Assembly (NCBI GenBank): GCA_049322615.1
Contig: JBMORX010000010.1
Location: 25,416-89,415, forward strand
DNA length: 64,000 nucleotides
Reading direction: 5' to 3'
Source: Patescibacteria group bacterium
GTDB taxonomy: Bacteria > Patescibacteriota > Microgenomatia > CAYGWK01
A program made the translations under genes and the position numbers. Of this stretch, positions 24,161 through 24,344 are shown in pieces (the first letter of the stretch is position 1; every line of letters starts with the position of its first letter). The notes beneath the pieces were generated by a model. The model searched no databases and was not told the DNA's origin. It saw nothing but the letters and a program-made list of their open reading frames with translations.

Positions 24161-24344
24161 GCTTGTGCTTCGCACAAGTTTCCGAATTAATCCGAATGCT
24201 TGGTTTTGGTTTAAAATTTATTCGGATAAATTCGGATGAAGAACTTGACCTAGAAGATCAGTCTCAACATCCGAATAAATCCAAATAAGAAAAGCAAACA
24301 AACACATTAGGATTAAATTCGGATATCTCGTGCGGAGCACGAGC
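24161..24344 (+). repeat. ~184-nt multi-hairpin insertion element, 16S copy
   Basis: Near-identical to 31848..32030 in 23S. Starts with the gcttgtgcttcgcacaag hairpin and ends with the ctcgtgcggagcacgag hairpin. Confidence 0.85.

Follow-up and report, generated by a model that had tools for sequence, protein, structure and literature searches.

Results

The rRNA operon and its insertions

The window, i.e. the whole 64-kb stretch of DNA analysed here, is part of a 161,724-bp contig of a metagenome-assembled genome (MAG), and carries repeatedly interrupted rRNA genes. The 16S rRNA gene spans 22676..26963 on the plus strand, according to Rfam and comparison with E. coli. Its own Rfam match ended at 25051, and the 3' terminus bearing GGATCACCTCCTTTCT (~26945-26963, plus strand) was located beyond a 1.9-kb insertion, which contains two LAGLIDADG ORFs and lies upstream of the true 16S 3' end. 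The 23S rRNA gene spans 31503..36553 on the plus strand (3' end at ~36553), with an Rfam match of its own at 31503-35313; it is interrupted by a 911-nt insertion carrying a LAGLIDADG_2 ORF (35218-36128) and resumes at 36129. The 5S rRNA gene (36736-36851) was identified by Rfam, as was a group I intron at 23474-23703. The 415-nt insertion at 23S E. coli ~1918 contains a probable group I intron without an ORF (34111-34486; Intron_gpI, 37.6 bits, E 3.7e-8, under the gathering score). [quoted passage not shown] A search with the intron LAGLIDADG protein returned one 1.9-kb contig from a single sequencing run, with the cassettes described below outside its span.

[quoted passage not shown]

Two of the insertions are copies of one 184-nt cassette. 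The first copy (24161..24344, plus strand), delimited by rod fold, end motif and alignment, takes the place of the tip of 16S helix 26 (E. coli ~821-860), and consists of hairpin A (24162-24178, CTTGTGC-TTC-GCACAAG), word stem B (24179-24326) and hairpin C (24327-24343, CTCGTGC-GGA-GCACGAG). The second copy (31848..32030, plus strand), delimited by the Rfam LSU model (224/232), rod fold and end motif, is located in a single-stranded linker of the 23S rRNA (E. coli ~221-231), with hairpin A at 31849-31865 (CTTGTGC-TTC-GCACAAG) and hairpin C at 32013-32029 (CTCGCGC-GAA-GCGCGAG). Since the 16S site is a helix tip and the 23S site a single-stranded linker, the same sequence occurs in two structural contexts and in two RNAs.

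A sequence-only reading of the window had proposed that the two copies are colinear from end to end, and the alignments agree: together with their flanks they align over 209 columns at a mean column identity of 90%, pairwise blastn gave 85.4% over 185 nt (E 8e-49), the three long identical runs quoted in that reading are present in both copies, and the 3' hairpin CTCG(T/C)GC-G(G/A)A-GC(A/G)CGAG closes both. The 5' hairpin starts both copies as described, but its loop is the 3-nt TTC rather than 'ttcg'. The two-end pattern was found at exactly these two places in the window (0 in 100 shuffles). By their alignment, we regard the 16S and 23S copies as true paralogues in two unrelated host RNAs.

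The differences between the copies had been said to cluster in the loops, which is partly so, but 10 of the ~27 differing columns are at paired positions, and there every base change preserves pairing in the consensus fold. Across 61 consensus pairs, the search for compensatory changes yielded three double compensatory and four wobble-compatible single changes, with no pair broken. Each copy is predicted to fold into a single rod of ~90 bp, with a dG of -82.4 kcal/mol for the 16S and -81.1 kcal/mol for the 23S copy (z ~-9). The initial description of a multi-hairpin element was right in that the local hairpins are kept, but the minimum-free-energy fold is one long rod, not three hairpins. A pure three-hairpin reading and a pure rod reading are each incomplete, given that the ends pair both ways, and the description that suits the predicted folds best is a rod whose ends are bistable. 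The antisense of the pair folds as well as the sense (-85.6 vs -82.4 kcal/mol).

Both copies are, as first described, ORF-less and devoid of an intron core: neither contains an ORF, and no Rfam family was matched at threshold. At a permissive threshold, Rfam returned just weak generic hairpin (miRNA precursor) models for the element and no ribozyme, and the Rfam covariance models, which do detect the introns of the operon, found no group I or group II ribozyme structure on the cassettes. An exact 22-mer from the core of the element had no match in public genome or metagenome collections, neither of which holds the source MAG.

Family members elsewhere in the window

The end motif, CTYRYGC-NNN-GCRYRAG, occurs eight times in the 64-kb window, solely as four pairs (starting at 24162/24327, 31849/32013, 32073/32183 and 34749/34853) that bound four rRNA insertions. 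In addition to the 16S/23S pair, these comprise a third member located at the tip of a hairpin in 23S domain I (32073..32199, plus strand; E. coli ~268-282), in which hairpin A (CTCGTGC-GGA-GCACGAG, an exact match to the 3' end hairpin of the 16S copy) is followed by a CGCTGAAC-type word stem and hairpin C (CTCATGC-TTC-GCATGAG), and a fourth member in the 23S E. coli 2127-2227 region, in the H78 area (34749..34869, plus strand), with hairpin A CTTGTGC-GTA-GCACAAG and hairpin C CTCGCGC-TGC-GCGCGAG as its ends. The word stem of the fourth member is related to the stems at 32073-32199 and 32472-32622. The latter is a word hairpin at 23S helix 25, a classical site of intervening sequences (IVSs); it lies on the plus strand (32472..32622), is without the conserved end hairpins, and has CAGCG words related to those of the third and fourth members. 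The three-part plan (GC hairpin, word hairpin, GC hairpin) that had been ascribed to all three insertions thus holds for 32073-32199 and 34749-34869 but fails for the H25 insertion, which has no terminal GC hairpins.

An AT-rich hairpin module is also shared, and at three places rather than the two originally noted, all on the plus strand: within the 16S helix 6 insertion (22789..22880; whole insertion 22746-22921), at the tip of 23S helix 10 (31676..31776; whole insertion 31633-31798), and, as a third copy, inside the probable group I intron (34305..34406). The first two, whose similarity had been reported from the sequence, align at 82% and have an exact 28-mer in common (z 27.8 against shuffles). 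The 8-nt TAGCAATA repeats at 46772-47079 were set aside, as they lie within a coding region and are unrelated to the cassettes.

A CPR-wide family at recurrent sites

The family pattern, defined as two end hairpins with an 87-147-nt gap, was run on public metagenome and genome collections and gave matches on at least 120 contigs of the former and at least 119 of the latter (at least 239 loci). We listed 271 matches and mapped them on E. coli rRNA coordinates, and built a site table from 200 unique sense-defined elements. Nearly all of the 271 matches listed fall within rRNA genes, at recurrent sites that include the classical IVS sites H25 and H45. Among the matches listed, the 23S rRNA accounts for 49 elements at H45, 41 at H25, 21 at H63, 20 at E. 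coli 256-395, and seven each at ~Ec227, H98 and H68, while 15 elements were assigned to 16S h6 and seven to the 16S trailer; cassettes thus also occur just beyond the mature rRNA ends, in the 16S trailer and the 23S leader. The element strand, again among the matches listed, is that of the host RNA in 179 cases and the opposite in 12, and the opposite-strand cases appear to be mostly spurious spans between adjacent elements (seen for L015, L022 and L025).

The family is also present in a second kind of structured RNA. Among the matches listed, RNase P RNA genes host five AT-rich members that have no rRNA match (E 6e-15 to 8e-29), and it is because of the insertion that these cassette-bearing genes fall under the Rfam gathering threshold. 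Three other members that lacked an rRNA match nearby were placed in rRNA or in the 16S intron region. No cassette copy was found in the ordinary intergenic DNA of the window and of ~1.6 Mb of family loci, and every true member in the loci examined is sense-oriented within an rRNA operon or an RNase P RNA gene.

Two groups of matches suggested a wider distribution and were discounted. The GC-rich matches in the complete genomes of Svornostia, Pedococcus and Hyphomicrobium, and in further high-GC contigs, arose by chance in coding DNA and have neither the CTY prefix nor the word stem. Contigs labelled as Gammaproteobacteria, Rhodobacterales and the like do contain true members, but were judged to be probably mis-binned CPR; the rRNA of these contigs is 72-86% identical to that of E. 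coli over partial lengths, like that of CPR contigs. Among the matches listed, true family members therefore all appear to be CPR-type, and the window cassettes, by their shared pattern and sites, belong to a very large family that spans the CPR and occupies recurrent sites, and are not oddities of one operon.

Architecture of the ends and selection on the RNA

The matches listed follow a constant plan, with a 5' CTTGTGC-NNN-GCACAAG, a tandem-word stem and a 3' CTCGCGC-NNN-GCGCGAG. As RNA, the consensus of the 17-nt ends is CUUGUGC-NUN-GCACAAG (5') and CUCGCGC-NGN-GCGCGAG (3'). The stem is composed of species-specific tandem words of 8-11 nt and their G:U-tolerant complements, and its base is conserved too (about GAAATTCGAA...TTCGGATTTC, including an invariant U.G pair). 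The cassette as a whole is predicted to form, once transcribed, a 60-90-bp double-stranded rod atop the host helix, in which the 17-nt ends act as terminal inverted repeats, mutually complementary at 15 of 17 positions including G:U.

The ends vary in a concerted manner. Variants outside the search constraint change in pairs, e.g. CTTGTCC/GGACAAG together with CTCGCCC/GGGCGAG (other variant ends are CTCACGC, CTCATGC and CTCGTCC), and position 6 covaries between the ends, with 27 of the 32 elements that have a 5' CTTGTCC also having C at 3' position 6. The three 'loop' nucleotides of each end were unconstrained by any selection that we applied; among the matches listed, the loop triplets are nevertheless antiparallel-complementary in 183 of 202 elements, as against 52.6 +/- 5.5 in shuffles (maximum 73), and the same is true of 33 of the 50 distinct triplet combinations, where 10% would be expected.

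The self-complementarity of each end is retained as well. In the 3' end, the C residues at positions 3 and 5 produce A.C mismatches in the duplex and C-G pairs in the end's own hairpin, so that the basal duplex has fixed A.C mismatches (rod positions 13 and 15) along with U.G wobbles. Even when the 3' end was defined by duplex pairing alone, it was internally paired at 7 of 7 positions (Watson-Crick and G:U) in 239 of 256 cases among the matches listed. Loop complementarity and retained internal pairing, taken together, argue that the ends are selected for both conformations.

Of the 201 elements that were folded from the matches listed, 189 have the rod as their minimum-free-energy structure, and in 177 of the 201 the sense RNA is more stable than the antisense, the mean difference being 8.7 kcal/mol (p 5e-26). 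This computed excess of sense over antisense stability points to selection on the transcript.

Copying between sites

Among the matches listed, 27% of the cassette pairs within a locus are at least 70% core-identical, compared with 2.7% of the pairs between loci, and ~20 loci have cassette pairs at 75-100% identity. The locus L073 has near-identical cassettes in 16S (~Ec1419), 23S H45 and 23S H63. As the sharing recurs in other genomes, both in this locus and in the excess of within-locus pairs, some intragenomic copying is real, and cross-gene sharing is a general property of the cassette family.

Mobility or templated copying had been deduced from the sharing in the window. Intragenomic copying is upheld by these comparisons, but a new transposition is not required, given resident cassettes at both sites: in other CPR lineages, both harbour cassettes that have other cores (L250 and L198 at 23S ~Ec227; L195 at 16S h26), so that gene conversion could explain the similarity without a new transposition. 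Judged on the cores compared, gene conversion between resident cassettes would be a more economical route to the 16S/23S similarity than fresh insertion. It cannot account for the first colonisation of the sites, for which fresh insertion is needed at some point.

No target-site duplication of at least 3 nt was detected at the four window elements. In the 202 listed elements, direct border repeats of 3-5 nt mostly did not exceed their frequency in shuffled flank pairs, the sole excess being a 4-nt repeat (8 vs 0.9 expected) with the border shifted 1 nt outward. Apart from a single closing base pair, the family elements listed share no conserved target motif, and no transposase was recognized among the 26 window ORFs scanned, most of which are at least 250 aa.

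Discussion

A considerable part of bacterial diversity belongs to the CPR (Patescibacteria), whose rRNA genes are notorious for their interruptions. Introns in these genes have been studied, whereas the short ORF-less insertions have been left 'uncharacterized'. Many of the latter form a single sequence family, characterised by conserved and covarying ends, an RNA structure specific to one strand, repeated copying from site to site, and a presence in RNase P RNA in addition to rRNA. Such a family gives a handle on CPR ribosome maturation and on the question of rRNA fragmentation, its defined 17-bp duplex is a testable candidate cleavage or recognition site, and the end motif can be used to annotate or mask insertions in 16S/23S surveys and in RNase P RNA searches.

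Relation to known insertions

Short ORF-less, non-intron insertions in CPR rRNA genes were left 'uncharacterized' by Tsurumaki et al. 2024, who suggested that those at two 23S sites are RNase III-type IVSs (PMC11270868). Like the cassettes, the insertions described in that article are shorter than 200-250 bp, contain no ORF, do not belong to group I or II, are frequent at 23IS2 and 23IS4, and occur in Saccharibacteria (PMC11270868), and on this basis they are almost certainly the same objects. The accessible portion of PMC11270868 contains no description of conserved ends, of rod/hairpin bistability, of sharing between sites and genes, or of RNase P RNA copies. 'Large extensions of helices' were reported in CPR RNase P RNAs by Lui et al. 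2021 (PMC8172020). The literature that we searched yielded no prior account of the conserved ends or their dual pairing, nor of cassettes shared between sites or linking rRNA with RNase P RNA.

IVSs are stem-loops excised by RNase III, and in Coxiella the cut falls within the basal stem, ~9 nt from the 5' end (PMC4990558). The cassettes resemble the IVSs of Salmonella, Leptospira, Coxiella, Campylobacter and Alphaproteobacteria in lying in rRNA genes at helix tips (including H25, H45 and H9/H10), in having complementary ends that form an extended stem-loop and, like most IVSs, no catalytic core, and in being distributed sporadically, with horizontal or intragenomic spread suspected. Unlike IVSs, they have conserved self-palindromic 17-nt ends with fixed wobble and mismatch positions in many phyla, a motif known here from CPR alone, as well as a tandem-word stem, and they occupy many more sites, in 16S, rRNA spacers, a single-stranded 23S linker and RNase P RNA. 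Excision by RNase III, which is known for IVSs, is putative for the CPR cassettes. Overall, the cassette is a well-defined variant of bacterial IVSs, rather than a wholly new system.

Two other kinds of sequence invite comparison. The Correia/NEMIS repeats of Neisseria are MITE-type palindromes whose transcripts fold into hairpins sensitive to RNase III; they have target-site duplications, are mostly intergenic, and occur in either orientation. The cassettes are likewise short, ORF-less and multicopy, with terminal inverted repeats and long RNA hairpins, but they lack a duplication, are confined to stable-RNA genes in the DNA examined, and are sense-oriented. The expansion segments of eukaryotic and Asgard rRNAs are retained and have site-specific sequences, and a compensatory-slippage model has been proposed for the eukaryotic ones; we know of no end motif common to expansion segments. 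The cassettes lie at the same variable-region sites (H25, H45, H63, H79 and H98 in 23S; h6, h10, h17, h26, h39 and h44 in 16S) and also have short repeated motifs on both arms of a growing helix, yet differ in that the same cassette is found at different sites and in different RNAs.

Probable excision as intervening sequences

We favor, as a probable though far from settled explanation, that the cassettes are a CPR-specific variant of IVSs which is excised by RNase III as double-stranded RNA, and copied or homogenised within genomes. The excision, the enzyme involved and the copying mechanism are what we infer from the computational analysis. A dimeric double-strand-specific endonuclease, most likely RNase III, would cut the rod from the precursor without re-ligation, with the pseudo-two-fold symmetric basal duplex serving as a defined entry or limit site, a symmetry that would fit a homodimeric enzyme. 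After cleavage, each 17-nt end could refold into its GC hairpin and thereby cap the new RNA end, which would explain why the ends are selected for mutual pairing as well as for self-complementarity. The 16S and 23S copies would have been made within this genome by gene conversion between old resident cassettes, using the conserved ends as homology, or alternatively by de novo copying to a new site through an ORF-less mechanism.

Bacterial RNase III cleaves long near-perfect double-stranded RNA, and the intact survival of 60-90-bp rods would therefore be unlikely. A role for this enzyme is suggested not only by the rods being generic substrates for it, but also by the predominance of the classical IVS sites H25 and H45 among the matches listed, by the precedent of known IVSs as RNase III-excised stem-loops that, in Coxiella, are cut within the basal stem, and by the cassettes just outside the mature 16S and 23S ends, where a processing role fits. 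Set against the IVS reading is that a simple RNase III stem needs no fixed A.C mismatches or U.G wobbles, and that, given 6-7 non-intron insertions in each rRNA, unligated excision would break the rRNAs into many pieces and split the RNase P RNA, a state unusual for bacteria. The antisense of the 184-nt pair, moreover, folds as well as its sense.

Alternative explanations

A different account is that the rods stay in the mature rRNA or RNase P RNA as surface extensions grown by compensatory slippage, with the ends acting as a folding clamp or a protein-binding site. The coincidence of cassette sites with universal variable regions that tolerate expansion would suit such retained segments, as would the tandem words on both arms, which slippage would give, the conservation of local GC hairpins against the interest of the rod, and the many fragments that excision would yield; in RNase P RNA, the copies have a parallel in the CPR helix extensions that were drawn as retained (PMC8172020). 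Retention is nonetheless unlikely in our view: a near-perfect long duplex is a generic substrate of RNase III, cassettes occur in the 16S trailer and 23S leader, where retention is meaningless, and the covariation between the loops of the two ends speaks for an uninterrupted duplex. Furthermore, removal of CPR rRNA insertions from transcripts has been reported, mainly for introns (Brown et al. 2015, cited in PMC11270868). Mobility offers another perspective. Several features are what a non-autonomous DNA transposon (MITE, REP or IS200/IS605-like) would show, with palindromic ends serving a transposase or recombinase encoded elsewhere and the 16S/23S copies deriving from recent transposition: terminal inverted repeats whose sequence is conserved across CPR phyla, ends that are each perfectly palindromic, as would suit a DNA-binding protein acting as a dimer or an enzyme that recognises hairpins, near-identical copies at unrelated sites in many genomes, and a sporadic site occupancy that does not follow phylogeny (PMC11270868). 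The 17-bp ends would then be binding sites or single-stranded DNA hairpins, and the RNA folding a by-product that makes insertions tolerable in stable-RNA genes alone. This is rather improbable, since no target-site duplication of at least 3 nt and no target motif past the one closing base pair were found, ordinary intergenic DNA (of the window and ~1.6 Mb of family loci) held no copy, the orientation is essentially always sense, the strand-specific G:U pairing indicates selection on RNA, and the scanned window ORFs include no transposase.

A more tentative idea, which we hold to be possible though doubtful, is that the cassettes represent a new class of ORF-less mobile elements of CPR stable-structured-RNA genes, i.e. 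a bistable rod/two-hairpin module that would be bound or otherwise recognised by a conserved host or trans-acting factor, colonise exposed helices of 16S, 23S and RNase P RNA without duplication, for example by a hairpin/single-strand DNA-based or an RNA-mediated route, and double as a processing or end-capping signal. If the cassettes truly move, they would constitute a novel type of element directed at structured-RNA genes. The possibility that one of the window copies was misplaced by repeat-induced misassembly of metagenomic reads deserves mention, as the genome is metagenome-assembled, no second assembly of the exact copies was found in public collections, and the sole other contig from the source organism spans a different part of the 16S rRNA gene. 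We consider such an artefact highly implausible. The ~27 differences between the copies, with their compensatory changes, mark two distinct sequences, each copy is flanked by correct contiguous host rRNA with the host helix intact, and independent CPR assemblies have family members at exactly both sites, together with sharing across sites.

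Cassettes shared between 16S and 23S genes, and in RNase P RNA

Three near-identical cassettes, i.e. ORF-less insertions with conserved 17-nt ends and a stem of tandem words (here GACGCAGAAC), were found within a single genome at L073, a locus of another CPR genome matched by the end-hairpin pattern. They lie in the 16S gene at E. coli ~1419 (9237-9369), and in the 23S gene at helices H45 (3140-3275) and H63 (2538-2670), and this locus is a second, independent case of a cassette common to 16S and 23S. L073 belongs to the same contig family as L069.

Members of the family were also detected within the RNase P RNA genes of other CPR genomes, at five loci: L031 (4420-4884), L046 (1067-1511), L193 (137-680), L090 (1967-2679) and L209 (about 7020-7600). 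Because of the cassette insertion, these genes fall below the Rfam gathering score, and such insertions may be why RNase P RNAs have in some cases been described as "diverged" or missing in CPR.

Large insertions in the rRNA genes of the window

The 3' part of the 16S gene carries an insertion of ~1.9 kb (25016-26906), located between E. coli ~1396 and ~1486, which contains two LAGLIDADG ORFs, one LAGLIDADG_1 (25522-25974) and one LAGLIDADG_3 (26301-26807). The true 3' end of the gene, with the anti-Shine-Dalgarno sequence, lies at ~26945-26963, and the Rfam stop at 25051 is short of it. A 1.9-kb contig in run SRR32167786 matches a stretch of this insertion region identically.

In the 23S gene, a 911-nt insertion at E. 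coli 2504/2505 (35218-36128) harbors a LAGLIDADG_2 ORF (35322-35993). Since the 23S sequence resumes at 36129 and the gene ends at ~36553, the Rfam-reported end at 35313 is forced. A 415-nt insertion (34111-34486) at E. coli ~1918, in the H69 region, gives a group I intron match of 37.6 bits (E 3.7e-8), which is below the Rfam gathering score. It contains a copy of the AT-rich hairpin, the second module common to 16S and 23S, so that this module can also reside in an intron. Within the insertion at E. coli 1398-1600 (33519-33806), ~65 nt are 80-84% similar to 26845-26909 and 25324-25361 in the 16S 3' insertion region, and judged by this similarity the stretch may represent another module common to both genes.

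Word hairpins and other repeats in and around the rRNA operon

Two word hairpins of ~90 nt, with a mutual identity of 76-80%, are situated just 5' of tRNA genes, one (21635-21726) next to tRNA-Lys (21749) and the other (31113-31212) next to tRNA-Ala (31339), which precedes 23S. Both fold much better as sense than as antisense RNA (-44 vs. -33 and -55 vs. -39 kcal/mol, respectively). They may be processing stems that are broadly akin to the cassettes but have no conserved ends. Immediately 3' of the 16S gene is a hairpin of 8-nt words (26968-27065) GCGATTAA GCAACTAA GCAATTGA ... TTAATAGC TTAGTAGC), which resembles cassette family members in the 16S trailers of other CPR genomes but lacks the end motif.

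The 16S/tRNA-Ile spacer holds a 56-nt GC-rich direct repeat (27604-27659 and 28570-28625, 98% identical). The full 5S gene (36736-36851) is preceded, at a distance of ~50 nt, by a partial 5S rRNA copy (36634-36686), which covers model positions 14-66 with a score of 39 bits. Gene and partial copy have a 57-nt stretch in common at 77% identity.

Protein-coding genes elsewhere in the window

Two giant ORFs on the minus strand look like CPR surface proteins, one of 3318 aa (53948-63904) with an intein/Hint domain and 15 copies of a 39-nt motif (GTCGTCCCGATGCCGACGTTGCC core), and one of 1951 aa (47531-53386) with Laminin_G_3, DUF2341 and fn3 domains. Three tandem B12-binding radical SAM paralogues (8093-8872, 9467-10939 and 10887-12353), the first of which looks truncated, share DNA segments of 70-79% identity, and adjoin two SPASM radical SAM genes and glycosyltransferases.
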